DNA from: Candidatus Bathyarchaeota archaeon
Lineage (GTDB): Archaea > Thermoproteota > Bathyarchaeia > TCS64
NCBI GenBank assembly: GCA_016783455.1
Contig: JADHWN010000001.1
Span: 41,930-105,929, forward strand
DNA length: 64,000 nucleotides
Direction: 5' to 3'
Shown: one piece after another, positions 635 through 18,225 of the stretch
Numbering within the stretch: the stretch's first letter is position 1
Layout: each line of letters begins with the position of its first letter
Made by a program: the position numbers and the translations under genes
The notes under the pieces: model-generated
Told to the model about the DNA's origin: nothing
Databases searched by the model: none
The model's input: the letters and a program-made list of their open reading frames with translations, nothing else

Positions 635-1576
635 GTGTTGTCTGAACCAACCATGCCGACCCACCACGGCATCGAAGCTAAAGTGAATGGAGACTACCCC
701 AACGAGACGCTGCGGATCCTCCACCAGAGGGGAAGCTGCCGCCACTTCAAAGACGAGAAGATACCCGAGGAGGTGCTGGAGCTCCTCCTTGGAGCGGCGG
801 TGAACGCCCCCAGCGGTGGCAACCTCCAGAGCTTCAACATAGTCAAGATCGAAGACCCCGAGCGCCGGGAGAAGCTGATGAAGATCTGCGGCAACCAGAG
901 GTTCATCGGGGAGGCACCCCTCAACCTCGTCATCTGCCTCGACCAACGTCGGAGCATGAGGTGGGCGAAGCTCGACTATGCCCCATTCACCGGCATGGCC
1001 CAGATCAGGTCCTTCCTGATGGGCATCCAGCTGACAGGCATCGTGGGCCAAGCGATCTGCGTGGCAGCTGACGCCTTAGGCCTCGGCTCCTGCTACGTCG
1101 GTACGGCCCTAGCGAATGCGGGGGAGGTCTCGGAGTTCCTTGAGCTGCCCCAGGGAGTCTTCCCTGGAGTGCTCATCAGCATCGGTTACCCCGCAGAGGA
1201 GATATCCACGAGGAAGAAGCACCGGCTGAACACCCTCCTCCACCAGGAGAGGCACCGTGACCTCCCCGACGAGGAGCTCCTCGCCGCGTACAAGGAGAAG
1301 CACGAGGCGGCATGGGCCCCCCGGGTCGAGATAACGGAGAGACGGCTCCAGAGGCTCTACGAGACCTGCCTCAGGGTCCACGGAGAGGAGTTCGCTGAAC
1401 GTAGCGTAGCACATGCACGGGAGCTAGGATATATAAGCCCCGTTCAGAGGTACTTTGGCCTCCACTACCGAGCCGACTCTGTCTTCACCTCCCCCAATTC
1501 GGAGTTCTTAGAGATCATCAAGGGGCAGAGCTGGAACATCTGCGGGGACTATAAGCCACCTATGAAACACGAATAA
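635..1576 (+). CDS. Nitroreductase-family flavoprotein with a C-terminal extension.
   Basis: 313 aa ORF with a GTG start. The nitroreductase fold shows in RGSCRHFKDEKIPEEVLELLLGAAVNAPSGGNLQSFNIVKIED and SCYVGTA. The alternative ATG at 653 is equally plausible. Confidence 0.75.
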   Translation: MLSEPTMPTHHGIEAKVNGDYPNETLRILHQRGSCRHFKDEKIPEEVLELLLGAAVNAPSGGNLQSFNIVKIEDPERREKLMKICGNQRFIGEAPLNLVICLDQRRSMRWAKLDYAPFTGMAQIRSFLMGIQLTGIVGQAICVAADALGLGSCYVGTALANAGEVSEFLELPQGVFPGVLISIGYPAEEISTRKKHRLNTLLHQERHRDLPDEELLAAYKEKHEAAWAPRVEITERRLQRLYETCLRVHGEEFAERSVAHARELGYISPVQRYFGLHYRADSVFTSPNSEFLEIIKGQSWNICGDYKPPMKHE

Positions 1577-1685
1577 CCTCTACGAGTGGGCTAACCCCTT
1601 ACGAGAGACTCGTTCAGGACAGAGGCGTTGTCACATACCGGGTAAGCGATATATAGACAGTTCCCAAAGGAATACTGAACAGAAA

Positions 1686-3287
1686 ATGGTCGACCAAGGA
1701 TTCAGGATCCCCACCAAGAAAAGCCTCGTCGTGAGAAAGGTCAGAGACGTCACCCAGAAGCAGCGGGAGCGAGCCCAAGCGGCGACTGAGTACAACGTCT
1801 TCTCTTTCCCGGCGGAGCTTCTGGTTGTGGATTACCTGTCGGACTCGGGGACAACGGCCATGACCGACAGGCAGTGGGCGGCGCTGATGTACGGGGATGA
1901 GAGCTACGGGAGGAACACCGGCTACTTCGTCCTCTTGGAGGCGTTCAGGGACATCTTCGAGAGGGGTGACGCCCGGAGGAAGACTGTGGACCTGATCCTG
2001 AGAAACGAGAGAGACGTCGACAAGCTCATGGACGAGCTCCTTCTGGTGGATGTCGAGGGGGGGTTCGTGAACGGTGGCAGGTTCCAGCTCATGAGGCCAA
2101 ACGCATTCATCGTGCCCCAGGGCAGGTGTGCTGAGCACCTGCTCTTCACCACCCTCAGGAAGGTCTTGACGGAGCACTTCCCCGGATCGGAGTACTGGAT
2201 CCCGAGCAACGGGCACTTCGACACCACCGAGGCCAACATCCACAGCAACGACATCCACCCCGTCAACCTCTTCTCGGGGGACATTTTCAGCGAGTTTCCC
2301 GTCGAGGAGATACGAGACGTGAACCCCTTCAAGGGGGATATGGACATCAGGAGGCTCGTAAAGCTCATAGATGAGAAGGGAGCGGAGTCGGTTCCCCTGA
2401 TCTACCTGACGATAACCAACAACACGGCCGCCGGTCAGCCCGTCTCCATGAGGAACATGCGCGAGGTCAGGGAGGTGGCCGACAGGTACGGCATCCCCCT
2501 GTTCTTCGACGCATGCAGGTTCGCCGAGAACGCCTACTTCATCAAGGAGTTCGAGGAGGGCTACGAGGGCTCTTCCATACCTGAGATAGTCAGGGAGATG
2601 TTCATCCACTGCGACGGGTTCTCAATCAGCTTCAAGAAGGACGGCCTAGCGAACATGGGGGGAGGCCTCTTCTTCAAGGACAGGGGGGTCTTCCATCGGC
2701 GGTTCTCCGTTGACGCTGACGTAGGGGTGCTCCTCAAGGAGATGCAGATACTCTCCTTCGGGAACGACAGCTACGGCGGCCTCAGCGGCAGGGACATCAT
2801 GGCGCTGACCATCGGCCTCTACGAGGTCGTCGAGGAGGACTACCTCCGGGACAGGATAGAGCAGGTGAGGGACATGGCGGAGAAGCTTGCCCTAAACGGA
2901 GTGCCGGTCGTCCTGCCCCCCGGAGGCCACGCGGTCTACGTTGACATTGACAGGTTCTTCGAGGGCACCGACGTGAGGATCGAAGACTTCGGTGGCGTGG
3001 GGCTAACCCTGGAGTTGATCAGGAGATACGGGATAAGGGGCTGCGAGCTAGGGCCATTCGCCTTCGAGTGGGACAAGAAGACCCCGGAGGAGAGGAAGGG
3101 CATACTGAACTTCGTGAGGTTCGCCGTGCCCAGAAACGTGTACAACGTTGAGCACATCAACTACACTGTCGCAGCGTTGACCGAGCTCCACCGGAACAGG
3201 GAGAGAATACCGAAAGTAGAGATAGTGAGGGGGAAGGAGCTCCGCCTTAGGCACTTCCAGACAGGTCTCAGACCTGTATACAGCTAG
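1686..3287 (+). CDS. Tryptophanase / tyrosine phenol-lyase (beta-eliminating lyase family, PLP-dependent).
   Basis: 533 aa. It aligns along its length with E. coli TnaA as I recall it: DYLSDSGTTAMTD, PVSMRNMREVREVADRYGIPLFFDACRFAENAYFIKE (the PLP-Lys region context) and a C-terminal ...LRHF... end. There is a central insertion of about 60 aa. Trp versus Tyr specificity cannot be called from sequence alone. Confidence 0.85.
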   Translation: MVDQGFRIPTKKSLVVRKVRDVTQKQRERAQAATEYNVFSFPAELLVVDYLSDSGTTAMTDRQWAALMYGDESYGRNTGYFVLLEAFRDIFERGDARRKTVDLILRNERDVDKLMDELLLVDVEGGFVNGGRFQLMRPNAFIVPQGRCAEHLLFTTLRKVLTEHFPGSEYWIPSNGHFDTTEANIHSNDIHPVNLFSGDIFSEFPVEEIRDVNPFKGDMDIRRLVKLIDEKGAESVPLIYLTITNNTAAGQPVSMRNMREVREVADRYGIPLFFDACRFAENAYFIKEFEEGYEGSSIPEIVREMFIHCDGFSISFKKDGLANMGGGLFFKDRGVFHRRFSVDADVGVLLKEMQILSFGNDSYGGLSGRDIMALTIGLYEVVEEDYLRDRIEQVRDMAEKLALNGVPVVLPPGGHAVYVDIDRFFEGTDVRIEDFGGVGLTLELIRRYGIRGCELGPFAFEWDKKTPEERKGILNFVRFAVPRNVYNVEHINYTVAALTELHRNRERIPKVEIVRGKELRLRHFQTGLRPVYS

Positions 3288-3382
3288 CGGACTCATGGAA
3301 GAGGCCTCCCCCCATCTTACACGGCAGATATGGATCCAAGTAAGTGAAGGGTTTAGTGCTTCCTGGCGGTGAGCAAAGCCAC

Positions 3383-3472
3383 TTAGGTCCTCTCGTCGGG
3401 GGACATGTTCTTTGCGTAGACGGCGAGGGCCGTCAGTGATGAGGACAACGCGTGGAGGACGACGCTGTTCAT
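3383..3472 (-). pseudogene. 29-codon relic matching the C-terminus of the threonine-synthase-like PLP enzyme encoded at 6307-7266; a gene remnant.
   Basis: The minus-strand translation MNSVVLHALSSSLTALAVYAKNMSPDERT* parallels ...LVLPASSSSLAALADYAKNRSSGERT... at the C-terminus of the 6307-7266 product. Shared nucleotide motif: ttgcgtagacggcgagggc versus ttgcgtagtcggccagggcggcgaggg. Confidence 0.3.
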
Positions 3473-3534
3473 CACGGGTATCTATTAGAGGGCACTGGTT
3501 ATTGTCGTTTTCATCTAAAAGCGAGGAGTCTCGC

Positions 3535-4770
3535 CTACTCCTCTCGCTTCTCGGGCTCCCTAACCTTGAGGACGGCTAAAAGCGCCCCCACGACGAGCAG
3601 CCCCGCGCTCAAGTAGAAGACGAAGGCCTTAGAGTAGCCCTGGTAGATGGCCCCACCCACGACGGTCCCGGCTCCCCAGATGAGGGACCAGGAGACGCTG
3701 GCTATCGCTGAGAACCGCCCCCGATGCTCCTTGGGGGAATAGTCGTAGAAGACCGCCTCCCAGGCAGGGTCCCCTATGCAGCTCGCCACCGTGATCAGCA
3801 ACCGGGCCACTAGGATACCCGGGTAGCCCCTCGCAACTGCGAAGAGGACGAAGGAGACCGGCCAGAGGAACATGGTCGGCAGTATGAACTTCATCCGCCC
3901 GTGCTTGTCCGAGGCCCTCGCCAGGGGGGGCATCAGAACTATCCTGGCGATCATCACCATCATCGTTGCGGCTCCCCACTGGGAGGCCAGGACGCCCACC
4001 TCCTCCTTCGCGTAGGTGACGAAGTAGGGCTCAGCCACGGCCCAGGCGAATGTGAAGACGAAGTCGATGAGGAGAAATGTCCAGAGCTGGATGGGGAGGT
4101 CCCTGAATGTGGCGACGAAGTCAGATAGGATCTCCCTCGCGGCGTTCCTAGGGTCCTTTTCGACCCCCTTCCCGTTCTCCAGGGTCTCCTCGATGTACCT
4201 GTACCTGAGGAACGAGGCCAGGGTAGCAATCACGAAGGTGAAGATGTAGGCCAATCGCATCACCGGCAGGATGCCCCTGGCGTCTATGAAGAGGCCAATA
4301 GCGTAGGGGGAGAGGAGGCCGAACAGGGAGGGGACAACCCTCCTGAGGGCCATGGAGAGGGCTCGGTTGTCAGGCGTCGTCGAGTCCGCCATGATGGAGA
4401 GGAAGGCCGGATCCCTCAGGCCGGCGAAGAGGGAGTCCAGCGCGAAGGCGACGTAGATGTACCGGTAGTCGGGGGCGTAGGCGAAGAATAGCTGGTTCAT
4501 GGCCAAGAGGAAGCTGAGGGAGTAGAGCATCTTCTTCCGCCCAAGGGCGTCTGCCAGATAACCCCCGAACAGGGAGGGGACTATCCTGATGACGGCTCCG
4601 AGAGCGAAGATGAGGCCGATGTCGATGTACCGGCCTCCTAGCTCCAGCACGTAGAGCGCGTAGAAGGGAAAAGTCATGGATGCGCCGATGTTCCACAGAC
4701 CTGAGCTGAGAAGCAGAACCCCGATGTTACTCCTTATAAATTTCCATCTACCCGCGTGGGCTTCAGGCAT
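3535..4770 (-). CDS. MFS-family transporter.
   Basis: 411 aa with multiple hydrophobic spans. An MFS-like signature appears in LIFALGAVIRIVPSLFGGYLADALGRKKML (G-x3-D-x-x-G-R-[KR]). Confidence 0.8.
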   Translation of the reverse strand: MPEAHAGRWKFIRSNIGVLLLSSGLWNIGASMTFPFYALYVLELGGRYIDIGLIFALGAVIRIVPSLFGGYLADALGRKKMLYSLSFLLAMNQLFFAYAPDYRYIYVAFALDSLFAGLRDPAFLSIMADSTTPDNRALSMALRRVVPSLFGLLSPYAIGLFIDARGILPVMRLAYIFTFVIATLASFLRYRYIEETLENGKGVEKDPRNAAREILSDFVATFRDLPIQLWTFLLIDFVFTFAWAVAEPYFVTYAKEEVGVLASQWGAATMMVMIARIVLMPPLARASDKHGRMKFILPTMFLWPVSFVLFAVARGYPGILVARLLITVASCIGDPAWEAVFYDYSPKEHRGRFSAIASVSWSLIWGAGTVVGGAIYQGYSKAFVFYLSAGLLVVGALLAVLKVREPEKREE

Positions 4771-4914
4771 ACCTCTCAGCTAACATCTATCATCAACGCT
4801 CAGGTTAATGCAATAACGGGAAGGGATCAACAATAAAAATTTACCTGAAAAAAAAAGGCCGCGTGCTAAATATTTATCTTCTAATGTCGAGATGCTTTTA
4901 CGGACCAGATAATA

Positions 4915-6357
4915 ATGTCAGGTGCCAAAGACGGTTATCTCGACGTCGAAGCCTTCTACGACAACGATTCAGTTCTAATCCGGCTCGACGGCAAGGACTA
5001 CCGCATCGAGTACCCCGAGGAGGTCTGGAGCCCCCTCAGGGATGAGGTTAAGGCCTCCATCGTAGACCACCTGGCCTTCCTAGCCACCAACTATCTCCCA
5101 TTAGTCGCCGAGAAGACGGGGGTGAGGTATAACACCCGCCTGCCGATGTTCGACTCCTTCTCCTTCAAGAGCAACGCCATGGACATGCCCTCAAGCGCCG
5201 TCCTCGACTGGAAGAAACCACATGACTATGTAAGGGACTACCTGAACCTCGACTTCGTCTTCAGCCCCGAGAGGCCCATAGTGTGGAGGGAGACCTTCGA
5301 GCCGGAAAACAGGGCGATTATATCCTTCACTTCGGGAAAGGAGAGCCTCCTCACCCTCGCCATCTGCCTCGAGCTCGGGCTGGAGCCCATCCTGATCAAC
5401 ATCGTGGAGCCCTCCAACACTTACGAGAGGGGACATAAAGCCGAGATCCTCGAGAAGATCAACGAGGAGTTCGGCATAGGCTACTACACCGTCCCCAACC
5501 AGGTGGGGCTCTTCCACGACGCCAAGCACATGGGCCTGAGGCCCAGCGCCCTGGGCTGGGGGAACCAGCTAATGTACTACCTCTTCATCTACCTCCCCTT
5601 CATAATCCACCACAGGGCAAAGTACGTCTTCTACGGCAATGAGCACAGTTGCGACTTCGAGGTTGATGGCTCAGAGGGCTTCCGTAACAACTTCTGCTAC
5701 GACCAGAGCAGCCACTGGACCATCCAGCAGGACATCATGCTGCGTACCCTGACTGGAGACTCTGCGAGCGTGGGGAGCCTCGTCGGCCCCCTCAACGAGA
5801 TAGCGGTAGTCAAGTGCCTCCACGAGGGCTACCCGGAGCTGGCGAAGTACCAGATGTCATGCTTCTGCGAGGACGAGGTCACCCGGGAGCACAGGTGGTG
5901 CTGCAACTGCTCGAAGTGCGCCAGGAACTACGCCTTCATCAAGGCCATAGGAGGGGACCCTCAGAGGGTGGGTTTCTGGCTCGACATGTTCAGCGATGAT
6001 TGCATAGGCCTCTACGCGGCCATGGATGGCAAGGAGACATATGGGTTCGACAGGAGCGGCCTCGGGAGGGAGGAGCAGGAGCTGGCGCTCCTCATGGCGT
6101 GCGAGAGGGACCCTGAGAACCCTTTCCTGAGGGAGTTCATGGCGAAGATCGATCTCGGTACCTCAGGCGAGAACCCCGGCGACCCATTGGACGCCTTGTA
6201 TGAGTACTACTTCACGCCCCAGGAGTACCTCGCGATACCCGAAGAGCTGAAGGAGCAGGTGTACGATATCTACAACAGGCTTCTGAAAACCCAGAGTGAG
6301 ACGCCCTCAGAGTCTCCTACCCGTCAAGACGGCCACGAAAGTCCTCTCTCCGGATGA
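4915..6357 (+). CDS. Uncharacterised PP-loop-like / PAPS-reductase-like ATP pyrophosphatase-family protein, paralog A. It has a conserved QueC-like C-terminal Cys cluster.
   Basis: 480 aa. Degenerate PP-loop IISFTSGKESLLTLAI (compare SGGKDS). Cys cluster MSCFCEDEVTREHRWCCNCSKCARNY. It is homologous along its whole length to the 7360-8718 product, with shared N-terminal I/VEYP-E-W and LPL-KTG blocks. Confidence 0.55.
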   Translation: MSGAKDGYLDVEAFYDNDSVLIRLDGKDYRIEYPEEVWSPLRDEVKASIVDHLAFLATNYLPLVAEKTGVRYNTRLPMFDSFSFKSNAMDMPSSAVLDWKKPHDYVRDYLNLDFVFSPERPIVWRETFEPENRAIISFTSGKESLLTLAICLELGLEPILINIVEPSNTYERGHKAEILEKINEEFGIGYYTVPNQVGLFHDAKHMGLRPSALGWGNQLMYYLFIYLPFIIHHRAKYVFYGNEHSCDFEVDGSEGFRNNFCYDQSSHWTIQQDIMLRTLTGDSASVGSLVGPLNEIAVVKCLHEGYPELAKYQMSCFCEDEVTREHRWCCNCSKCARNYAFIKAIGGDPQRVGFWLDMFSDDCIGLYAAMDGKETYGFDRSGLGREEQELALLMACERDPENPFLREFMAKIDLGTSGENPGDPLDALYEYYFTPQEYLAIPEELKEQVYDIYNRLLKTQSETPSESPTRQDGHESPLSG

Positions 6358-7266
6358 CCTGTTTTTTGCGTAGTCGGCCAGGGCGGCGAGGGAGGAGGAC
6401 GACGCCGGGAGGACGAGGAGCCCCTCCTGGTGGGCAAGGATTTCTGAGAAGGCTAGGAGCGTGTCGTCAGGGACATAGGCGGCCCACCCCCGGCTTTCCC
6501 AGAGGGCGTCCAGGGCCTCCTGCCCGTCGAGGCATCGCCAGCTCACCAGGGGCTCGTTGTGCTCGGTCTCAGTGATCTCCGAAGGCTCTAGGTCCCTTAT
6601 CCTTCTCTCTCCATTATGGAAGCAGTCCACGACGGGGTTCCCCCCGGGGGTGCTTGCGGCGACCATGATCGGGACCTTGTCGGTCTCACCTTCGTCTCGG
6701 AGCCTCTTGAAGCCCTGATGGACGCCGGCGAGGGTGGTGCCGTTGCCCACCGGCACGGCGACGACGTCTGGGGCGTACCCCAGCCTCTCGTGGATCTCGT
6801 AGGAGATCGTTGCGTAGGCCTCCATGGAAGCCTTGGTGTTGGCCTCTACACCGGGGTTGGCGTTGAACCACCCGAGCCTCGCCGCCTCTTGCCCAGAGAA
6901 CTCGACCACCTCCTCGTAAGTCCCGGGAGCCCGGTGGATGATCCCCCCCGCATCCTCCATCTCCCTTATTCGGGGAGTGTGGTAGCCTTCCGGGATGTAG
7001 ACATGGGTCTCTATGTCGAATCTCTTCGAGAGGTGGACGAAGGAGGCGCCGAAGTTGCCGCAGGAGGCTATGACGAGTTTGTCGTATCCCCCCTTCCTGG
7101 CGAGGTCCAGGCATGCATAGGAGGCTCTGTCCTTCATTGTGCCAGTGGGATTTCCGCCCTCGAACTTTAGGAAAATTTTACTGAAATCTAGCAATATTTC
7201 GATATTACGTGAACGTGTAAAGATCGTGCCCCCGATGCCGTGCAGTTTTAGATCATCTTTCAACAT
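6307..7266 (-). CDS. Threonine-synthase-like PLP-dependent enzyme (fold-type II, TrpB/ThrC/CysK superfamily).
   Basis: 319 aa. FLKFEGGNPTGTMKDRASYACLDLA is closest to the threonine synthase PLP-lysine motif E-x-NPTGSFKDRG. A glycine-rich loop VPVGNGTTLAG is present. Its 3' end overlaps the 4915-6357 gene convergently by 51 nt. Confidence 0.7.
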   Translation of the reverse strand: MLKDDLKLHGIGGTIFTRSRNIEILLDFSKIFLKFEGGNPTGTMKDRASYACLDLARKGGYDKLVIASCGNFGASFVHLSKRFDIETHVYIPEGYHTPRIREMEDAGGIIHRAPGTYEEVVEFSGQEAARLGWFNANPGVEANTKASMEAYATISYEIHERLGYAPDVVAVPVGNGTTLAGVHQGFKRLRDEGETDKVPIMVAASTPGGNPVVDCFHNGERRIRDLEPSEITETEHNEPLVSWRCLDGQEALDALWESRGWAAYVPDDTLLAFSEILAHQEGLLVLPASSSSLAALADYAKNRSSGERTFVAVLTGRRL

Positions 7267-7359
7267 TTTGATTAACTTTCTCTCGAAGAAGGATAGATAT
7301 TGTTTTTAATCACCAAGTATTTACGCGTTTCGGATCTCAGATCTAAAGGTAATGGTTAA

Positions 7360-8718
7360 GTGAAGAGTCTAGCCATCAAGGCCAGGCAGACGGACAGCGG
7401 CGTGGAGATCCGCTTCCGGGGCTCCAAATACGTCATCGAGTATCCCGACGAAATCTGGAAGGAGTACCCCCGGGAGGCCCGTGACGTTCTATTTGACAAC
7501 CTCGTCTACGCCGAGACCATCCATCTGCCTCTGACCCACAAGACCGGGGAGATAGTCTACGACACTCCTCCCCCCTACTTCCAGACCTATTTTTTCCAGA
7601 ACATGGTCATGGACTTCCCCAGCTGCGCCGACGTGGATGGTACATCGACCGCTGAGCTGCTGAAGGCCTTCATGAACACGACGGTCTCCTTCAGTGAACA
7701 GGAGATAAAGTTCCCCGACCACGTCGAGGAGACCCGGGAGGACTCCTCGGTTGTGAGCATCAGCTTCGGGAAGGACAGCCTCCTCACCTGGGCAGTCTGC
7801 AGGGAGATGGGGATGAACCCCCAGCTCTGCTACGTCGTGGAGCCCCTCCTCACATACGAGGAGAAGCACAAGATGGTCCTCGCCGAGGAGTTCCACAGGG
7901 AGTTCGGGGTCAAGCTCAACAAGATAATCCACTCCGCCGGCAAGCTCCGGGATGGCATAATGCTGGGGCTGGGCAAGACGGAGTTAGGCTGGGGACTACA
8001 GTCCACGGAGTACGCCCTCATGATCCTCCCCGTCGCCCACAGGTACGGGGCCCGGTACATCCTCCTCGGTAACGAGCAGAGCTGCGCCGAGTACTACCAT
8101 GACAAGGAGGGCTTCGTCTGTTACCCCGCCTACGACCAGAGCCACATCTGGACGAAGCAGATCGACTCCATGACCCGGCAGATGACCGGGGGAGGCGTCC
8201 GCTACATGAGCGTCATCGAGCCCCTGAACGACATCGCCGTCGTCTACGCCCTCTACAAGCGGTATCCCGAGGTGGCCAAGTATCACATGTCCTGCTTCGT
8301 GGAGACGGAAGCTGGGAGGGACCACCGCTGGTGTCTCGACTGCTCGGTCTGCAGCAAGATGTACCTCCTCATCGTGGCCTCAGGCTTCGACCCGGCCACT
8401 GTGGGCCTAACCAGGAACATGCTCACCAGGGAGTGCAAGGACTACTACAGCCTCTTCGGCGGCAGCAGCGTCAACACATACGCCCTAACGGGGAGGGGCC
8501 GGGACGAGCAGCTTTTCGGCTTCTACCTCGCCTGGAAGAACGGCGACAGGAGCGACCTGGTCCAGGAGTTCGAGGACCGCTTCCTCGACGAGGCAAGGGA
8601 CAGGGAGGACGAGCTCTATAAGACGTTCTTCGGCCTCCACGAGAGCATAACGATGCCCAAACACATCAACGAGAAGGCGACGAGCATATACAAGGAGGTG
8701 CTTTCAGATCTCCCCTAA
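7360..8718 (+). CDS. Uncharacterised PP-loop-like ATP pyrophosphatase-family protein, paralog B.
   Basis: 452 aa with a GTG start. Better-conserved PP-loop VVSISFGKDSLLTWAVC. Cys cluster MSCFVETEAGRDHRWCLDCSVCSKMY. The stop lies 5 nt before the ATP-grasp start, so the arrangement looks like an operon. Confidence 0.6.
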   Translation: MKSLAIKARQTDSGVEIRFRGSKYVIEYPDEIWKEYPREARDVLFDNLVYAETIHLPLTHKTGEIVYDTPPPYFQTYFFQNMVMDFPSCADVDGTSTAELLKAFMNTTVSFSEQEIKFPDHVEETREDSSVVSISFGKDSLLTWAVCREMGMNPQLCYVVEPLLTYEEKHKMVLAEEFHREFGVKLNKIIHSAGKLRDGIMLGLGKTELGWGLQSTEYALMILPVAHRYGARYILLGNEQSCAEYYHDKEGFVCYPAYDQSHIWTKQIDSMTRQMTGGGVRYMSVIEPLNDIAVVYALYKRYPEVAKYHMSCFVETEAGRDHRWCLDCSVCSKMYLLIVASGFDPATVGLTRNMLTRECKDYYSLFGGSSVNTYALTGRGRDEQLFGFYLAWKNGDRSDLVQEFEDRFLDEARDREDELYKTFFGLHESITMPKHINEKATSIYKEVLSDLP

Positions 8719-8722
8719 ACGA

Positions 8723-9721
8723 ATGAGGGTGGCCTTCTGCTGTAACACCCGTCACGAGGAGGACGAGTTCCAGGTCGAGTACGACCCACCGGACACGATA
8801 GAGAAGGTCAAGAAGGGGATAGAGTACGCGGGCCACGAGTACCTCTTCATCGAGGGCGACGAGACCGCATACGACCGCTTGAGGACGCTGAGGCCCGACA
8901 TGGTGCTCAACAGGGCGGAGGGGATCAGAGGGGAGAGCAGGGAGTCCCATATACCCGCCTTCTGCGAGATGCTGGGCATCCCCTACGTCGGCGCGGGCAT
9001 TATGTCCACGGCCATCTGCCTCGAGAAGCCCACAACCAAGATGATACTAGAGTTCAACGGCGTCAAGACGGCGCCCTTCCAGGTCTTCAACGCCGTCGAC
9101 GACCCCCTGGATTCCGGTGTCGAGCTACCCCTGATACTGAAGCCGAGCCACGAGGGCTCCAGCATGGGGATCAACTGGGACAACGTCGTCTTCGACGAGG
9201 CGGCGCTCAGGGCGAAGCTGGCGGAGATGCTGGAGACCTACAGGCAGCCAATCCTCGGGGAGAGGTACATCGATGGCCGCGAGTTCACCACAGGGCTCCT
9301 GGGCAACTACCTTCCGGGGGAGGAGCCCCGGTTCCTCTCAGTATTGGAGGTGGACTTCTCCAGGTTCCCGGAGGGGCTGGGGAACGTCCTGGGGCAGAAG
9401 GCGAAGACCATCTTCGACACATCAGACCACTACGTCTGCCCGGCGAACATCCCCGAGTCCCTGAGGCTGAGGCTGGAGGAGGCGTCCCTGAAGGCCTTCA
9501 AGGCTCTGGACATAAAGGACTGGGCGCGGTTCGACTGGAGGATGGACGGAGATGGGGAGATCTACTTCCTGGAGGCGAATCCGCTGCCGGGGATCGACGC
9601 GGTCGAGGAGGAGGACGAGTACAGCTTCTACCCCATGATGGCCCTCGCCTCCGACATGACCTATGACGAGATGATAAAGCAGCTGATCGAGGCCGCCTTC
9701 AGGCGGTACGGCATCAAATAG
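8723..9721 (+). CDS. ATP-grasp ligase, D-alanine--D-alanine ligase family.
   Basis: 332 aa. Ddl-like organisation with ILKPSHEGSSMGI (ATP-grasp lysine region) and EIYFLEANPLPG (C-terminal Mg/ATP motif E-x-N). Confidence 0.75.
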   Translation: MRVAFCCNTRHEEDEFQVEYDPPDTIEKVKKGIEYAGHEYLFIEGDETAYDRLRTLRPDMVLNRAEGIRGESRESHIPAFCEMLGIPYVGAGIMSTAICLEKPTTKMILEFNGVKTAPFQVFNAVDDPLDSGVELPLILKPSHEGSSMGINWDNVVFDEAALRAKLAEMLETYRQPILGERYIDGREFTTGLLGNYLPGEEPRFLSVLEVDFSRFPEGLGNVLGQKAKTIFDTSDHYVCPANIPESLRLRLEEASLKAFKALDIKDWARFDWRMDGDGEIYFLEANPLPGIDAVEEEDEYSFYPMMALASDMTYDEMIKQLIEAAFRRYGIK

Positions 9722-9733
9722 AGGGAGTGCAGT

Positions 9734-10336
9734 ATGGAGGACCTTGTACCTTTCCTGGAGGACGCGATGAGGGCGGCAGAGGGGAGGCTCCGGGACACCC
9801 TGGGCAGGGAGTGCAGGATCTGCATCCACGTCCACATGAGCGGGGAGCTCACGCAGGTCGTCGATAGGATAGACCACGAGAAGTTCAGGCCCGAGCTCCA
9901 GTACACCCTGGAGGAGCTCATGGCAAAGGCAGGAAATGGGGGCTTCGTCCTGTTCATGCTGACCTGTGACGACGAGCCGACGGCCTTCCTCTACGGCTAC
10001 ACCGATGAGGGGGACGGGTCCAGATTCTTCCTCGACTCTGTCGCCACGCTCATAGAGGGGAAAGGCATAGGCTCCATCCTGGTGACCCTCGCCCTCGTGT
10101 ACTGCCACGACATCGGATACAGGAGCGTGGAGCTGTATACGGAGGAGGTGGATGAGAGGGGGCGGCACCTCGTGAAGTTCTACGAGGACATGGGGTTCGA
10201 TTTGGCAGATAAAGACCCGGACAAGGGCGTCGTCATGCGCTCTTACCTCGATGCCTCTAAGCTCAGACACGCGTGCCTGAGATACATCGGCCTGGAGAGG
10301 GATGCCCAGGAGTTCAGCTCCATACACACCCTGTAG
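9734..10336 (+). CDS. GNAT-family N-acetyltransferase (paralog of the 14477-15040 product).
   Basis: 200 aa. GNAT motif A-like LIEGKGIGSILVTLAL. It shares the unusual block RIDHEKFRPELQY with the paralog at 14.5-15.0 kb. Confidence 0.6.
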   Translation: MEDLVPFLEDAMRAAEGRLRDTLGRECRICIHVHMSGELTQVVDRIDHEKFRPELQYTLEELMAKAGNGGFVLFMLTCDDEPTAFLYGYTDEGDGSRFFLDSVATLIEGKGIGSILVTLALVYCHDIGYRSVELYTEEVDERGRHLVKFYEDMGFDLADKDPDKGVVMRSYLDASKLRHACLRYIGLERDAQEFSSIHTL

Positions 10337-10415: not shown

Positions 10416-10739
10416 TCACGCCTTCAGTGTACTGACGAACTCGTCGATGGTAGCGGCGGGCATGCTGGTGATCTTCACGGTGCCTCGGCTCCCCAGCTCG
10501 ATGGACATCTTGAAGATGGCCTCGTTGTCCGGCGCATCGACGATGGTAACGAAGTCGTATGGTCCTAGGACTGCGTACTGCTCTATGACCTTCACGCCGT
10601 AGGACTCGACCTCAATGTTGACTTCCTTTATACGATCCGGCTTGTTCTTGATGGTCTTCCTCCCGTCCTCCGTCAGGGTCGAGAGGAGGATATACCTCGC
10701 CAAGGATCTCACCCATGAATGGAAAACGGAGACCTTCAC
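10416..10739 (-). CDS. GYD-domain protein.
   Basis: 107 aa. YILLSTLTEDG...VLGPYDFVTIVDAPDNEAIFKMSIELGSRG carries the GYD signature (LGPYDFV). The true start may be internal. Confidence 0.6.
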   Translation of the reverse strand: MKVSVFHSWVRSLARYILLSTLTEDGRKTIKNKPDRIKEVNIEVESYGVKVIEQYAVLGPYDFVTIVDAPDNEAIFKMSIELGSRGTVKITSMPAATIDEFVSTLKA

Positions 10740-13363: not shown

Positions 13364-14350
13364 CTAGTAAATGTCGCTGTTTGTGACGTGCCAGCGTTGG
13401 TAGTCCGATATCTTCAGTTCACCCCTGAATACGGCTCTTCCTTCCTGGCGGGTGTTGTTTAGAGCCATCATGATGACGGTGTACCAGGGGAGGACCTTGA
13501 AGCCCATTTCCACGGCCAATGACTCGAGCCGGCTTCCCCTCTTTGCGTTAAACTCGACTGCGGTCACGCCCGTGTGCATCTCCAACAGAGCCTCCAAGGT
13601 TCCGGGTAACAGATCCTCGAGCAGACCGAGAGTGTAGTCGTTGAGGGTCATAGTGAGACCGCCGTACTCCTCCATGAGGTCGACTACGACGTAGCCCCTG
13701 GTCTCTCCGTCCATCAGAACCTTGTATGGGCGATTGTCTCTCACGGGGTGTCTATTCACCCGCCAGCGGAGATAGGGCAGGGTCCTATGGAAGTGGAGCA
13801 AGTGACTTCGCGCCGCCCACTCCTCGTAGAGCTCATGGTACTCCTCGACACTGATGGGTACCAAGTCGACGCCTCTGCGCGTAGCGAACTCCTCCAGAGC
13901 TTCACATTCAGCTTGGCATTTATCCACGTCGTATGCGAGCTCCGAGCCAGCTTTATGAGCGGCTCCAGCCGCCTCTATTAGGTTGAAGCCGATTAGTATC
14001 TCCGGGGCTCTCCCCTTCATCTCCTCTGACAGGAATCTCACAGTCCTCTGGAAGAGCCCCTTTCTGCGGTGCTCCCTGTCGACGAAGCCGTCGCAGCCCT
14101 GAACTGCCAGGAAGACCTCGTCGCCCATCCGGACCTGAAGGGGCAGGAAGGAGTTGAACGCTATGGGTACGCCCGTGGGGACGTGCTCTACAACGGCGAT
14201 GGACGTGAACCCGAGGTTGAATGGGTCCTCTTGGAACTTCCATCTGAAGACGTCCTCGTTGTACTCATCCCACAGGTCCACGTTCAGGCCATTCACAAAG
14301 GACGTTAAGTCTCCTTTTTTGAACCACCGCACAGTGTATTCGTCAGACAA
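13364..14350 (-). CDS. Two-domain GNAT-fold (FemAB/BioF2-like) acyltransferase-family protein, hypothetical.
   Basis: 328 aa. The acyl-CoA N-acyltransferase-like segment FLAVQGCDGFVDREHRRKGLFQRTV resembles an R/Q-x-x-G-x-G/A motif. Confidence 0.45.
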   Translation of the reverse strand: MSDEYTVRWFKKGDLTSFVNGLNVDLWDEYNEDVFRWKFQEDPFNLGFTSIAVVEHVPTGVPIAFNSFLPLQVRMGDEVFLAVQGCDGFVDREHRRKGLFQRTVRFLSEEMKGRAPEILIGFNLIEAAGAAHKAGSELAYDVDKCQAECEALEEFATRRGVDLVPISVEEYHELYEEWAARSHLLHFHRTLPYLRWRVNRHPVRDNRPYKVLMDGETRGYVVVDLMEEYGGLTMTLNDYTLGLLEDLLPGTLEALLEMHTGVTAVEFNAKRGSRLESLAVEMGFKVLPWYTVIMMALNNTRQEGRAVFRGELKISDYQRWHVTNSDIY

Positions 14351-14476: not shown

Positions 14477-15040
14477 CTACTTGTCCGAGATGTACCGGTC
14501 ATATAGCGACCTGATGCCTTGAGGGGTGTGTTTTAGCCTCATCTCTACGCCCTCCGATGGATCTGAGGATACAATCTCGAAGCCGAGTCTACCCCAGATT
14601 CGCGTCAGGGGCCTCCCTTCTTCGTCCACCTCCTCTGTCGTCAGCTTCGTGTATTCGTAACCATTTTCATAGGAATGGAGTATCTCCAACGCGAACAGCG
14701 TGGAGCCCACGCTCTTACCCTCGATGAGAGTTGCTGTAGTATCGGAGAAGAAAGTGCCCTCCTCCTCATCGTCGTACCCGTAATCAAAGGCGACTGCCCT
14801 GCCATCGAGTCTCGCTATCAGGCATAGGAACCCTCTCCTCTGCCTCCTCGAGTCCAGCTCGTCGCGGTCATACCATAGCTCCCGCCTGAACTTTTCGTGG
14901 TCTATTGTCTCGATATCTGTCATGAGACCCACATCAAGCTCGTGGTGGACTAAAATCTTGCATCGCCCATTCAGTAGCCGGCTTAACCTGCTTTCTGCCT
15001 CCTTTACCGACTCGGCAAAAGGGGGGATGGTTTCAGTCAT
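14477..15040 (-). CDS. GNAT-family acetyltransferase, paralog of the 9734-10336 product.
   Basis: Start taken at MTETIPPFAESVKEAESRL, which aligns with MEDLVPFLEDAMRAAEGRL of the paralog. Both carry IDHEKFRRELWY and LIEGKSVGSTLFAL. Confidence 0.6.
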   Translation of the reverse strand: MTETIPPFAESVKEAESRLSRLLNGRCKILVHHELDVGLMTDIETIDHEKFRRELWYDRDELDSRRQRRGFLCLIARLDGRAVAFDYGYDDEEEGTFFSDTTATLIEGKSVGSTLFALEILHSYENGYEYTKLTTEEVDEEGRPLTRIWGRLGFEIVSSDPSEGVEMRLKHTPQGIRSLYDRYISDK

Positions 15041-15217
15041 TGGAGACCTAAACACCGTTAATTAGTATAATGTTATAATTTTTATTATGTGCCTCCATGA
15101 AATTTTATTCCCCCCTGACGGATGAGTTTAGGGTCATTTTAGATGCGCTTGCGAGCCGGAACCAGTTTCTTAAGTTGAGCAGTGATAGGAGGGAGCGTTC
15201 CTTTTTTGTTCCGATTG

Positions 15218-16483: not shown

Positions 16484-18175
16484 TTAGTACCCTATGGCGA
16501 TGGACTCGTGCATGTATTGGTGGCACTGGACGCCCCCGTGGAGGAGCCCCGTCTCCGGGTCCACGATGACGCCGACGGGCCGCCCCCAGCCGTACCGCTC
16601 CCTGTCCACCCAGACCAGGTCGTGCCCCCTCTCCAGGAGCCCCTCCCTCACCTCCGGCGGATACCTGTTGTCGACGTAGACGGTGGAGGTCTCCCTGAAG
16701 AGCCTGGGTGCCTCGATGGCGTCCTGGATGCCCATGCCGTGGTCCACGACGTTGACGACGACGTGGGCGACGGAGACCTGGATCTTCCTGCCCCCGGGTG
16801 CTCCGACGGACATGAAGGCCTCCCCGTCTCTGAGGAGGATGGTGGGGCAGACGTTCTGGATGCGCCTCTTCCGGCCGTCGATGGAGTTGGCGTGGCCGGG
16901 CTCCGGGTTGAGGCCGTACATGGCGTTGTTCATCGTGATGCCCGTCCCGGGGACCACGATGCCGCTGCCGAATCCGTCCACGAGGGTCTGGTTTACGCAG
17001 ACCAGGTTCCCCGCCCTGTCCCCGACGGCGAGGGCCGTGGTGCACTCGGGTTCATGGCGCCAGGGGTCGCCGGGCTCGACGGCGCAGGCCTCGTCCAGGC
17101 GTATCCTCCCCCTGAGCTCCTCGGCGTACCCGTCGGAGACGAGAGCCTTCTGGGGGACGCGGACGTGGCCCGGGTCTCCGAGGTACTTGAAGCGGTCGGC
17201 GAAGGCGAGGCCCACCGCCTCCGCCATAAGGTGGACCGTCTCAGGGGATCCGAAGCCGAGGCCGGCGAGGTCGTATCCCTCCAGTATCTTGAGTATCTGC
17301 ATCATGGTGATCCCCGAGTGGCTGGGGTCGTAGACCACGTCGTATCCCCTGTAGCTCCCGGGCTCGGGCTCGTGGACTATGGGCTCGTAGATGTCCAGGT
17401 CCTCCAGGGTGACGAGGCCTCCTCCCCTCTCCATCTCCTCGGCGATGGCCTCCGCGATCCATCCCCTGTAGAAGGCGTCAGACCCATCCTCTGCGATGGA
17501 GGCCAGCGACTTTGCGAGGTCGGACTGGACGAGCTTCGGAGGGTTCTTGGCGATCACTGAGGAGGGCCTGTAGGGGTACTGGCCGTCGATGAGGTAGATC
17601 CGCCTCCACTCCGGGAAGCCTGAGAAGAGCCTTAACCTGTTCGCGATGGAGGTGGTGATGCCCCTGCCGGGGACGAAGCCCTCCCTGGCCACAGCGATGG
17701 CAGGCGCCATTACCTCCCGAAGGCTCATGGTCCCGTACCTCTCCAGGGCCTCCGTGAGGCCTGCTACTGTGCCCGGTGTGGTGCTAGCCCTGTAACCGTA
17801 GACGTTGGCGTCGCCCTTCACCTTCCTCCAGCCCATCCAGCCGGGCTCGGTGTCATCTGTGAGCTCGTACATGTCTGGGGTGCAGCTCTTGGCAGGGCGC
17901 CCGACGTAGTCGACTATGATGTTCTCCCCCGACTCGAGGTGGATGGCCATGACGCCCTCCCCACCGATGCCGTTGGAGGCTGGCTCCACGACGCAGTCCA
18001 TGAAGGCGGCGGCGATGGCGGCGTCGACGGCGGTCCCGCCCTTCCTCATCATCTTGACGCCGGCCTCGCTGATGAGGGGGTGCTTGGAGGCGACCATGCC
18101 GTTCTCGGCGACGCAGTCGGGTCTCCCGGCGCCGATCCATCTGCGTCTCTGGTAGACTAGGGGCTGATCAGACAT
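16484..18175 (-). CDS. ggt: Gamma-glutamyltranspeptidase.
   Basis: 563 aa. GGT family features: the autoprocessing and catalytic Thr in NQTLVDGFGSGIVVPGTGITMNN, and the MSVGAPGG small-subunit motif. Confidence 0.85.
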   Translation of the reverse strand: MSDQPLVYQRRRWIGAGRPDCVAENGMVASKHPLISEAGVKMMRKGGTAVDAAIAAAFMDCVVEPASNGIGGEGVMAIHLESGENIIVDYVGRPAKSCTPDMYELTDDTEPGWMGWRKVKGDANVYGYRASTTPGTVAGLTEALERYGTMSLREVMAPAIAVAREGFVPGRGITTSIANRLRLFSGFPEWRRIYLIDGQYPYRPSSVIAKNPPKLVQSDLAKSLASIAEDGSDAFYRGWIAEAIAEEMERGGGLVTLEDLDIYEPIVHEPEPGSYRGYDVVYDPSHSGITMMQILKILEGYDLAGLGFGSPETVHLMAEAVGLAFADRFKYLGDPGHVRVPQKALVSDGYAEELRGRIRLDEACAVEPGDPWRHEPECTTALAVGDRAGNLVCVNQTLVDGFGSGIVVPGTGITMNNAMYGLNPEPGHANSIDGRKRRIQNVCPTILLRDGEAFMSVGAPGGRKIQVSVAHVVVNVVDHGMGIQDAIEAPRLFRETSTVYVDNRYPPEVREGLLERGHDLVWVDRERYGWGRPVGVIVDPETGLLHGGVQCHQYMHESIAIGY

Positions 18176-18225
18176 GATCAGGGGTTATGCGATGATCTTA
18201 AAATGATATTCTCGTGCCTCGGAGG

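Follow-up and report, generated by a model that had tools for sequence, protein, structure and literature searches.

A conserved archaeal cassette pairing a MurL-like PP-loop enzyme with a Ddl-family ATP-grasp ligase, and its possible role in peptide synthesis

Described relatives

MurL (XOO_1319 of Xanthomonas oryzae) acts together with the ligase MurD2 in an alternative route of peptidoglycan synthesis (Feng et al. 2017; PMC5808125, PMC8788868). The enzyme requires ATP and Mg, accepts only the ligase product as substrate and releases AMP, which implies adenylation of a carboxylate (PMC5808125, PMC8788868). It carries no recognised domains and acts on the C-terminal residue that the ligase has just added. 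No other member of the MurL superfamily has been characterised; the structure of MurL itself has not been solved and its mechanism is unresolved.

Other pathways offer parallels to parts of the locus described here. N-acetylglutaminylglutamine amide (NAGGN) is synthesised by Ngg plus AsnO, and NAAG by NAT8L plus RIMKLA. As known from general background and in their logic only, these routes resemble the locus in combining a GNAT with an ATP-grasp dipeptide ligase to yield an N-acetyl dipeptide; in the case of NAGGN, a PP-loop enzyme likewise works on the C-terminal carboxylate. Pyrrolysine (PylB/PylC/PylD) and D-cycloserine (DcsD/DcsC/DcsG) synthesis both use a Ddl-family ATP-grasp enzyme on a non-proteinogenic amino acid that is supplied by a dedicated tailoring enzyme, namely a radical-SAM mutase for pyrrolysine and a CysK-like PLP enzyme plus a racemase for D-cycloserine, comparable to the PLP and KamA variants described below.

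A four-gene unit and its enzymes

We analysed a stretch of 64,000 nt from a Candidatus Bathyarchaeota archaeon (contig JADHWN010000001.1), hereafter the window, which contains the genes listed in Table 1. All seven features proposed by an earlier sequence-only reading were found, including the remnant of a second PLP-gene copy beside the transporter and the two divergent PP-loop-like paralogs with a QueC-like Cys4 cluster, for which the identity holds over the full length and all four Cys are present in both. The close packing of paralog B, the ATP-grasp gene and the GNAT gene was also borne out, but the gaps are 4 and 12 nt rather than the 5 and 13 nt claimed. The PLP gene and paralog A do overlap convergently, by 51 nt (6307-6357). 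That the transporter belongs to the MFS was correct, whereas its description as an exporter is an assumption only, the direction of transport being undetermined. The two divergent intergenic regions are presumed to contain putative promoters, an archaeal one in the case of the region next to the MFS gene.

Table 1. Features of the locus (window coordinates)
Feature	Position	Strand	Size and evidence
PLP-gene remnant, pseudogene fragment	3344..3475	-	direct repeat D1, DNA alignment and translation
MFS transporter	3535-4770	-	411 aa; Pfam MFS_1, E 1.6e-43
Intergenic, AT-rich, divergent (MFS gene / paralog A)	4771..4914		sequence read directly
Paralog A, MurL-like PP-loop enzyme	4915-6357	+	480 aa; 35% identical to paralog B
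PALP, threonine-synthase-like fold-type-II PLP enzyme	6307-7266	-	319 aa; Pfam PALP, E 1e-50
Intergenic, AT-rich, divergent (PLP gene / paralog B)	7267..7359		sequence read directly
Paralog B, MurL-like PP-loop enzyme of the conserved cassette	7360-8718	+	452 aa
Ddl-family ATP-grasp ligase	8723-9721	+	332 aa; Pfam Dala_Dala_lig_C, E 9e-29
GNAT acyltransferase	9734-10336	+	200 aa; Pfam Acetyltransf_1, E 1.6e-6

Paralog B, the ATP-grasp ligase, the GNAT and PALP form a real, previously uncharacterised four-gene unit that is common to many sediment archaea, and for which we found no published description. All four occur together in at least 51 of 62 evaluable species-level genomes (PALP in 60 of the 62 loci), and such recurrence in several archaeal phyla is more than chance. 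The hosts belong to the Bathyarchaeia, to the Thor-, Hermod-, Hod-, Borr- and Promethearchaeota and to the Aigarchaeota/Nitrososphaeria; one of them (L057) is a MAG assigned to the genus Bathyarchaeum, for which an enrichment culture exists. Where both genes could be located, paralog B and the ATP-grasp gene were mostly separated by -11 to ~110 nt, and the ATP-grasp and GNAT genes by 3 to 73 nt. In two loci the latter genes are fused, as confirmed by Pfam (L045, L046), and a third (L047) has one ORF of matching size. A single 829-aa open reading frame covers the MurL-like and ATP-grasp proteins in L088, possibly due to an assembly error. The cassette comes in two subtypes, each present in several phyla.

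Paralog B comprises an N-terminal domain (residues 1 to ~120), a QueC-like core with the PP-loop SFGKDS at residues 135-140, and a C-terminal helical domain (~345-452). Among 104 diverse relatives, C312, C325 and C328 are invariant and C331 is present in at least 90%. A high-confidence model predicts a QueC-like, carboxylate-adenylating PP-loop core with a Cys4 site, and a test for QueC features found the PP-loop ATP-pyrophosphatase fold with its Cys4 metal site in the MurL-like enzyme. Neither paralog matched any Pfam family; there were no matches to Pfam QueC or Asn_synthase, and the QueC models of Pfam and NCBIfam gave nothing at E ≤ 0.01. The NCBIfam MurL model did match paralog B (28.7 bits, E 4.7e-7), below its curated 700-bit equivalog cut-off, but did not match paralog A. 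Indeed, 80 of the 104 relatives matched this model (best E 3.3e-12), as exemplified by P0160, where residues 42-431 align to model positions 66-438 of 447 (E 4e-9). These matches are remote, with 29-35 bits in individual scans compared to the cut-off of 700. MurL is nonetheless the sole family link of the MurL-like enzyme, and the profile matches place the inferred homology at the superfamily level, across the ~450-aa architecture. MurL-like relatives number in the hundreds, with 797 clusters at 50% identity.

As in the MurD2/MurL system, the gene of a peptide-bond-forming ligase adjoins that of a ~450-aa protein of this superfamily, and the matches of the archaeal proteins cover most of the MurL model. 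The partner here is a Ddl-type ATP-grasp enzyme; neither the window cluster nor any related locus examined contained a Mur ligase. The cassette further differs in having the GNAT and the threonine-synthase-like PLP enzyme as conserved partners, and its hosts are archaea without murein (an SRP RNA supports the archaeal host); the substrate cannot be UDP-MurNAc-dipeptide. QueC itself, the 7-cyano-7-deazaguanine (preQ0) synthase, is a single-domain protein of ~220 aa, compared to 452 aa for paralog B, which has additional N- and C-terminal domains specific to its family; neither Pfam nor TIGRFAM yielded a QueC match, and queD, queE, queF and tgt are absent nearby. Relative to NAGGN and NAAG synthesis, the ATP-grasp enzyme is Ddl-type rather than RimK-type, the PP-loop enzyme is MurL/QueC-like rather than an asparagine synthetase with a glutaminase domain, and a PLP enzyme is present that NAGGN synthesis lacks. 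The pyrrolysine and D-cycloserine pathways contain neither a MurL-like enzyme nor a GNAT; their tailoring enzymes are from other families, and their remaining genes are absent at the cassette. Membership in the Qat or type IV CBASS Cap9 systems was considered and rejected (PADLOC negative, partner genes absent). The QatC model touched only one of the 104 relatives (E 0.009).

The ATP-grasp protein scored 100.9 bits against Pfam Dala_Dala_lig_C, but remained below every curated Ddl cut-off (best NCBIfam model NF002378, 161.6 compared to 243). Aligned to E. coli DdlB, it retains K215, R255, D257, E270, N272 and S281, whereas the omega-loop Tyr216 is replaced by Thr; the N-terminal region around DdlB E15 did not align with it, either in this alignment or in the PDB profile search. 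In the GNAT family alignment, the acyl-CoA loop is kept (motif EGKGIG). For PALP, the nearest PDB matches in a profile search were threonine synthases (E 1e-41), and its PLP lysine K45 aligns with K61 of the Thermus thermophilus enzyme. It passed the cut-off of NCBIfam NF004996, "threonine synthase" (351.8 bits compared to 266), but did not reach that of TIGR00260 thrC (66.1 compared to 167.1 bits). Furthermore, T85, T88, N154, S155 and R160 of the T. thermophilus enzyme, which we take to bind O-phosphohomoserine or its phosphate, correspond to C, F, E, A and S in PALP. A CGNFG motif is conserved in the PALPs of the cassette family, all of its positions but F being invariant. At JGI the orthologues are called "threonine synthase", at NCBI only "pyridoxal-phosphate dependent enzyme". 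The names "D-alanine--D-alanine ligase" and "threonine synthase" on these archaeal genes are probably wrong.

Local additions and the wider family

The remaining genes of the window locus are not part of the conserved unit. Direct repeat D1 (6315-6416 and 3361-3462, 74% identity by DNA alignment) links the PLP gene to the remnant, which corresponds to ~40 codons of its 3' end. The minus-strand translation of the remnant, VVLHALSSSLTALAVYAKNMSPDERT*VALLTARKH, is the counterpart of the intact PALP C-terminus, LVLPASSSSLAALADYAKNRSSGERTFVAVLTGRRL, and its in-frame stop marks it as a pseudogene fragment. The MFS gene is a lineage-specific addition, and MFS association across loci is sporadic: L011 has an MFS gene after the GNAT gene, with a product 67% identical to that in the window, and others lie near the cassette in L002, L012, L050, L051, L004 and L048. 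Paralog A has the PP-loop TSGKES and retains four of four Cys in the family alignment, with Ser in place of the near-invariant Cys89 of B-type proteins. Its C-terminal tail, encoded in the overlap, was found in no homologue in the alignment. The clade is rare (P0124 at 52% and P0127 at 38% identity), and no ATP-grasp gene adjoins these relatives. Placed beside the decayed second PLP-gene copy, paralog A and the MFS protein may be there to handle a variant of the product or to transport it.

In the wider MurL-like family, the PLP enzyme is often swapped for a KamA-type aminomutase or accompanied by a LysA-like decarboxylase. Among the 39 metagenome loci with sufficient flanking sequence, a Ddl-family ATP-grasp gene lies within 1.5 kb of the MurL-like gene in 34 and a KamA-family 2,3-aminomutase is encoded in 18; a LysA/FslC-like decarboxylase was present in 14 of the 80 loci fetched, and PALP in four metagenome loci. 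The KamA-type aminomutases of these sister clusters score close to AblA (507 bits compared to a 525-bit cut-off). L092 encodes a fusion of KamA and ATP-grasp together with a second ATP-grasp enzyme, a MurL-like enzyme and a GNAT. Some metagenome loci have two ATP-grasp genes close to the MurL-like gene. The constant ATP-grasp/MurL-like pairing with its varying KamA, LysA-like and PALP partners indicates a fixed core with interchangeable amino-acid-tailoring enzymes.

A putative peptide pathway and competing readings

The sequence-only reading had interpreted the locus as an accessory cluster for an undescribed small-molecule or peptide pathway, to be given up if the PP-loop paralogs fell into a housekeeping family and the genes were not co-localised in related genomes. 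Searches of Pfam and NCBIfam left both paralogs outside QueC, the tRNA thiolases and any other housekeeping family, and the co-localisation is strongly conserved, so the interpretation was not refuted. It gains support from the ATP-grasp and GNAT fusions, the one MurL-like and ATP-grasp fusion and the PLP-enzyme swaps in sister clusters. "Accessory" is a fair label; each of the two cassette subtypes occurs in several phyla. The extent of the cluster was overdrawn, as only four genes are conserved and the other features (MFS gene, paralog A, remnant) are specific to the lineage. Absent from that reading was MurL, by profile similarity the nearest characterised relative, which would provide a precedent for a ligase plus an epimerase (MurD2/MurL).

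With slightly less than even confidence, we propose that the locus encodes a conserved archaeal pathway, independent of ribosomes and NRPS, to a small N-acylated peptide, probably a dipeptide, and that this pathway includes a MurL-like epimerase. The threonine-synthase-like PLP enzyme would make or tailor an amino-acid building block from a substrate other than O-phosphohomoserine, and the Ddl-family ligase would couple it with a second amino acid via an acyl-phosphate. By analogy with MurL acting on the MurD2 product, paralog B could then adenylate the free C-terminal carboxylate of the ligase product, which would drive a one-way inversion of the alpha-carbon (L to D) followed by release of AMP, and the GNAT would acetylate the free amino group. 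The data directly show the identities and folds of the gene products, the conservation of their motifs and of synteny, the fusions and the exchange of tailoring enzymes as modules. All substrates, the order of the steps, export and epimerisation as the outcome of adenylation are inferences, as would be amidation in its place. Against the proposal, the similarity to MurL is remote (~29 bits compared to the 700-bit cut-off) and the MurL mechanism is itself unresolved. Moreover, canonical Ddl enzymes accept D-amino acids as such, which makes an epimerase downstream of ligation dispensable.

Among solved structures, the nearest are those of QueC, Cap9 and QatC, enzymes that make amides or nitriles without epimerising, which speaks against an epimerase. 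As in QueC and Cap9, where a carboxylate is adenylated and an amide then formed, the MurL-like enzyme could instead activate a carboxylate for attack by ammonia or an amine, giving an N-acetyl-dipeptide amide or amine conjugate of the compatible-solute type. We consider this rather unlikely, though far from negligible. The triad of GNAT, ATP-grasp and PP-loop enzyme resembles the logic of NAGGN synthesis (general knowledge), the AblA-like aminomutases and GNAT of sister clusters recall the synthesis of the osmolyte N-epsilon-acetyl-beta-lysine, the LysA/FslC-like decarboxylase of some of them could provide an amine, and the cassette of L002 has genes for mechanosensitive channels nearby. However, a glutaminase domain or partner is absent, the window-type cassette has no amine-generating enzyme, the sequence link is to MurL without a Pfam QueC or Asn_synthase match, and the osmolyte idea is analogy only. 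The enzymes of the cassette might also salvage or detoxify D-amino acids or peptidoglycan peptides from bacterial necromass, the GNAT acylating them and the MurL-like enzyme inverting the N-acyl compound one-way, comparable to the D- to L- route of N-succinyl-amino-acid racemase. In one Bathyarchaeia subclade (11-12 loci), an enolase of the OSBS/N-acylamino-acid-racemase type (TIGR01928, 273 bits, above cut-off) is encoded 1-5 kb downstream, along with an Amidohydro_3 hydrolase; the same enolase type occurs near the cassette in Promethearchaeota L002, S12 beta-lactamase or D-aminopeptidase-like genes are nearby in L001 and L002, and sediment archaea such as the hosts are known to degrade detrital protein (general knowledge). 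Yet these racemase and hydrolase neighbours occur in a minority of loci only (S12 genes in just two), a pair of ATP-consuming enzymes that includes a ligase fits biosynthesis better than catabolism, and salvage has no need of a tailoring PLP enzyme or aminomutase. We thus regard it as improbable.

Modification of a macromolecule, either a protein terminus or RNA, has precedents in the anti-phage conjugation of deazaguanine to a protein N-terminus by Cap9/QatC and in the modification of ribosomal proteins by RimK/RimI. Here, PADLOC returned only one negligible BrxP match for the six proteins, QatA, QatB, QatD and CD-NTase partners are absent, no small target ORF is conserved and the TM-score to QatC is low (0.37). 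The ATP-grasp enzyme is moreover of the Ddl type for small substrates and the partner enzymes tailor free amino acids, leaving this explanation very improbable. That there is no functional unit, and that unrelated hypothetical genes merely neighbour a normal threonine synthase, an acetyltransferase and a Ddl-like gene, could be argued from the NF004996 match and the JGI name, but is hardly credible given the cross-phylum synteny, short gaps and fusions, the missed thrC cut-off, the replaced substrate-binding residues and the noncommittal NCBI name.

If the proposed peptide pathway is correct, the cassette would indicate a small peptide metabolite common to Bathyarchaeia and Asgard archaea, in which almost no specialised metabolism is known. 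Its product could be an osmolyte, a signal, an antimetabolite or an envelope component, and a cassette of four small soluble proteins is testable. The high-confidence model, a QueC-like core with two new domains, offers a structural entry to the MurL-type mechanism, and hundreds of MurL relatives are almost always paired with a ligase. It is possible, if doubtful, that they represent a large unrecognised archaeal class of ribosome-independent peptide pathways, built on a fixed Ddl-family ligase and a MurL-type C-terminal epimerase with swappable tailoring enzymes. In that case, Asgard archaea and Bathyarchaeia would deliberately make peptides with D- or beta-amino acids, and MurL-type chemistry would extend beyond Xanthomonas cell-wall synthesis as a biosynthetic strategy of general use.

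Layout of the locus

The locus is built around a cassette of four genes, encoding paralog B (one of two MurL-like PP-loop proteins), a D-Ala-D-Ala ligase (Ddl)-family ATP-grasp enzyme, a GNAT acyltransferase and a threonine-synthase-like PLP enzyme of the PALP family. The gaps between the paralog B and ATP-grasp genes and between the ATP-grasp and GNAT genes measure 4 and 12 nt, respectively. Paralog A, the other MurL-like protein, is 35% identical to paralog B from end to end. Its gene overlaps the PLP gene tail-to-tail by 51 nt, and alignment showed that the overlapped stretch encodes a C-terminal tail absent from all homologues. The sequence-only reading had further proposed the remnant of a second PLP gene beside the MFS transporter gene, and this was borne out: the segment matches the PLP gene's 3′ terminus at 74% identity, and its translation is recognizable as a C-terminus and contains an in-frame stop.

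Positions of the features discussed, in the window or in related loci
Feature	Sequence	Position	Strand	Remarks
Nitroreductase and tryptophanase-type genes	window	635-3287	+	
PLP gene remnant	window	3361-3462		
MFS transporter	window	3535-4770	-	ORF listing and family scan
Paralog A	window	4915-6357	+	480 aa; no Pfam match
PALP, fold-type-II PLP enzyme	window	6307-7266	-	Pfam PALP, E 1e-50
Paralog B	window	7360-8718	+	452 aa; no Pfam match
D-Ala-D-Ala-ligase-family ATP-grasp	window	8723-9721	+	Pfam Dala_Dala_lig_C, E 9e-29
GNAT	window	9734-10336	+	ORF listing and family scan
GYD-domain gene	window	10416-10739	-	
ORF of 328 aa	window	13364-14350	-	no Pfam match
Second GNAT	window	14477-15055	-	
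Archaeal SRP RNA	window	33198-33511	-	Rfam RF01857, 108.6 bits
MFS-related features	L011	2111-2725 and 7006-8262		
Enolase/hydrolase region	L024	10542-13997		one Bathyarchaeia subclade
Enolase near cassette	L002	1393-2571		Promethearchaeota; same enolase type
Sister cluster	L098	4911-11181		
Sister cluster	L132	4719-8347		

Because an MFS gene occurs near the cassette only sporadically (in the window lineage and in L011, L012, L002, L050/51 and L004/48), and because the paralog A clade is rare among the relatives and its members outside the window lack an adjoining ATP-grasp gene, we regard the transporter, paralog A and the PALP remnant as a local elaboration. The neighborhoods of the paralog-A-type relatives in L090 and L093 contained no ATP-grasp gene and no consistent partner. 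Locally, the region looks like a wrecked second PALP-plus-MurL-like module with a transporter gene placed inside it. In the related locus L011 (86% identity in paralog B), a full MFS homologue (67%) lies downstream of the GNAT gene and a 92-aa MFS fragment adjoins the 3′ end of the PLP gene; the transporter gene has thus changed position between close relatives.

The SRP RNA confirms that the stretch is archaeal chromosome, and among named relatives Bathyarchaeota/Bathyarchaeia MAGs are the closest. Scans for Rfam families and tRNAs turned up no RNA element in the flagged region and no tRNA gene across the whole 64 kb. Upstream lie a nitroreductase-family gene and a gene for a 533-aa protein of the tryptophanase/tyrosine-phenol-lyase family, a length that exceeds the models by about 70 aa, and longer contigs of the same organism carry kynureninase-like and DDAH/arginine-deiminase-like genes further upstream; none of these showed conserved adjacency to the cassette elsewhere. 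The GYD-domain gene adjoining the GNAT gene encodes 107 aa as an ORF in the window and 59 or 95 aa as called in the near-identical contigs L006-L008, which points either to a start that is uncertain or to minor differences in sequence. The second GNAT, adjoined by an ORF of 328 aa, is 39% identical to the cassette GNAT, and in several related genomes it is this second copy, rather than the window's cassette GNAT, that the in-cassette GNAT resembles more closely. GC content is 0.64-0.67 at positions 16500-19500, compared with 0.53-0.61 in the cassette region.

Conservation of the cassette across archaea

Homologues of 75%, 61% and 48% identity lie, respectively, on an unbinned contig from a sediment metagenome, in an Aigarchaeota MAG and in a Promethearchaeota MAG; all of these contigs carry PALP, MurL-like and ATP-grasp genes, usually joined by the GNAT gene. 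When one genome per species was scanned, 134 contained a relative, and the best 80 were analyzed. Among the 62 loci with sufficient flank, ATP-grasp was present in 57, GNAT in 56 and PALP in 60, and at least 51 contained all four genes, a lower bound because fused genes were counted as missing. Absence of such co-localization would have spoken against the accessory biosynthetic cluster proposed by the sequence-only reading, which thus stands on this point. Gaps mostly ranged from −11 to about 110 nt between the MurL-like and ATP-grasp genes and from 3 to 73 nt between the ATP-grasp and GNAT genes. ATP-grasp and GNAT form one protein in L045 and L046 (confirmed by Pfam), L047 has a single ORF of the size seen in these fusions, and in L088 the MurL-like and ATP-grasp parts share one open reading frame of 829 aa.

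The cassette comes in two types, whose MurL-like proteins are 47% identical. PALP lies upstream in the first (the window, 34 Bathyarchaeia, Borrarchaeum and Aigarchaeota/Nitrososphaeria) and downstream, in convergent orientation, in the second (13 Thor-, 5 Prometh-, 2 Hermod- and 1 Hodarchaeota, and 10 Bathyarchaeia). As both types span phyla, the cassette either moves between sediment archaea or was duplicated long ago. Relatives of the MurL-like family were not found on plasmids.

Four loci (L010, L014, L060 and L068) are filed as bacterial MAGs, namely Patescibacteria, Krumholzibacteriaceae, Actinomycetota and Desulfaltia, and their MurL-like proteins are 47-92% identical to that of the window, the typical archaeal range. 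Misbinning probably explains three of them, whose contigs are short (2-14 kb); L060 is on a contig of 729 kb. Genes for S12 beta-lactamases/D-aminopeptidases, considered as a sign of D-peptide chemistry, were near the cassette in only two loci and were dropped.

The MurL-like proteins and their partner enzymes

Sequence searches of the PDB with paralogs A and B returned only noise. An AlphaFold2 model of paralog B, built from an alignment of 17 sequences (mean pLDDT 90, pTM 0.90), had a fold of the carboxylate-adenylating type, and the match that Foldseek ranked at the top was the 428-aa QueC-like protein QatC. Structural matches were limited to the central part (roughly residues 125-340), and Foldseek found no PDB counterpart for the N-terminal (1 to about 120) or the C-terminal helical domain (about 345-452). 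The PP-loop reads TSGKES in paralog A and SFGKDS in paralog B; across 104 diverse relatives, G137, C312, C325 and C328 are invariant, and K138, S140 and C331 are kept in at least 90%. The NCBIfam MurL model matched paralog B (E 4.7e-7), its distant relative P0160 (E 4e-9, covering model positions 66-438 of 447) and 80 of the 104 relatives in all (best E 3e-12), every match falling far below the 700-bit equivalog cut-off. The paralogs thus belong to the MurL superfamily and carry a QueC-like catalytic core, the link to MurL resting on this model alone without direct comparison to a MurL sequence, and they are neither MurL nor QueC. A housekeeping QueC or tRNA thiolase, which would have undermined the sequence-only reading, was ruled out by the absence of family matches and by the different architecture and context. 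The family comprises 797 clusters (50% identity, E ≤ 1e-3), 175 of them at E ≤ 1e-30.

The ATP-grasp enzyme reached none of the curated Ddl cut-offs. An alignment with E. coli DdlB showed that it retains K215, R255, D257, E270, N272 and S281 and has Thr at the position of Tyr216; the E15-bearing N-terminal segment of DdlB did not align with it. An N-T-R motif, R64 and R73 are invariant among cassette-family ATP-grasps, and R69 occurs in at least 90%. The PLP enzyme exceeded the cut-off of NCBIfam NF004996 "threonine synthase" (351.8 bits, cut-off 266) but reached only 66 bits with the canonical thrC model TIGR00260 (cut-off 167). It retains the PLP lysine (K45, which corresponds to K61 of Thermus thermophilus threonine synthase), whereas T85, T88, N154, S155 and R160 of that enzyme, which we take to hold the substrate carboxylate and phosphate, are replaced by C, F, E, A and S. 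If these roles are right, O-phosphohomoserine is unlikely to be the substrate, and an ordinary threonine synthase is unlikely given both the missed cut-off and the replaced residues. Cassette-family PLP enzymes keep a CGNFG motif, with C, G, N and the second G invariant, and NCBI labels the orthologues only "pyridoxal-phosphate dependent enzyme". In the GNAT, the acyl-CoA loop EGKGIG is intact, and a motif specific to the family, TEExDEKG, is present. Judged by their residues, ligase, acyltransferase and PLP enzyme all look competent.

A modular family and its possible chemistry

From the wider clade, 80 metagenome loci were retrieved, 39 of them with at least 2.5 kb of flank on both sides. 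In 34 of these 39, a Ddl-family ATP-grasp gene lay within 1.5 kb of the MurL-like gene, several loci having two, and a KamA-family aminomutase, which passed TIGR00238 and scored up to 507 bits against an AblA cut-off of 525, was present in 18. TS-like PALP and GNAT were found in 4 and 5 of the 39, and a LysA/FslC-like PLP decarboxylase gene directly followed the MurL-like gene in 14 of all 80. These counts indicate an invariant core of Ddl-type ligase and MurL-like protein with an interchangeable amino-acid enzyme.

In sister clusters (L092, L097-L175), a KamA-family 2,3-aminomutase is accompanied by one or two Ddl-type ATP-grasps, often by a LysA/FslC-like decarboxylase and in some cases also by an AlaDH/PNT-like protein and a YheC/D ATP-grasp. 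L092, the locus of P0160, encodes, in this order, a fusion of a KamA-type radical-SAM aminomutase and a Ddl-type ATP-grasp, a second ATP-grasp, the MurL-like protein and a GNAT. The KamA-type clusters look like an uncharacterized pathway for beta-amino-acid-containing peptides.

The nearest known system is MurD2/MurL of Xanthomonas by sequence and logic, QueC with the QueC-like Cap9 and QatC by structure, and N-acetylglutaminylglutamine amide synthesis by the combination of enzyme classes. At least one defining test failed for each of MurL, QueC, Ddl sensu stricto and threonine synthase sensu stricto, and we found no published description of the cassette or of archaeal MurL relatives. MurL, which has no recognized domains, requires ATP and Mg2+, produces AMP and acts unidirectionally, epimerizing to D-Glu the C-terminal L-Glu that the ligase MurD2 has just attached (PMC5808125, PMC8788868). 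The cassette likewise pairs a ligase with a MurL-type enzyme, but with another ligase class, new partners and new hosts. By analogy, the PLP enzyme would provide a building block, the ATP-grasp would ligate it, the MurL-like enzyme would adenylate the new C-terminal carboxylate and invert the alpha-carbon, and the GNAT would cap the amine. We reason that activating the carboxylate of an N-acylated residue would make the alpha-proton labile, for example via an oxazolone, which would explain why ligase products, rather than free amino acids, serve as substrates of such an epimerase. What the data themselves establish is the type of fold, the competent look of the partner enzymes, the tight operon-like linkage, the fusions and the modular partners. 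We favor this epimerase pathway, but only tentatively, on remote homology and genome context; substrates, product, stereochemistry and role are not established.

The chief alternative is that adenylation ends in amide formation, the outcome known from QueC, Cap9 and AsnO; the product would then be the amide of an N-acetyl-dipeptide or a conjugate with an amine, perhaps one that acts as an osmolyte. We consider this outcome rather unlikely. Salvage or detoxification of D-amino acids is suggested by enolases of the N-acylamino-acid-racemase type and by amidohydrolases, which neighbor the cassette in one Bathyarchaeia subclade and in L002, but such a role is hard to square with two synthetic enzymes that consume ATP and seems improbable. 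Within L024-L049, a subset of loci carries, 1-5 kb downstream of the cassette, an enolase of the OSBS/N-acylamino-acid-racemase type (TIGR01928, 273 bits) together with an Amidohydro_3 hydrolase of 547 aa. We give little credence to macromolecule modification or defense, a defense system being rejected since PADLOC was negative and partner genes were absent, and next to none to chance co-location. Housekeeping, defense and chance alike are hard to reconcile with the modular arrangement seen across the family: a fixed core with a swappable tailoring enzyme is the pattern expected of modular small-peptide biosynthesis.
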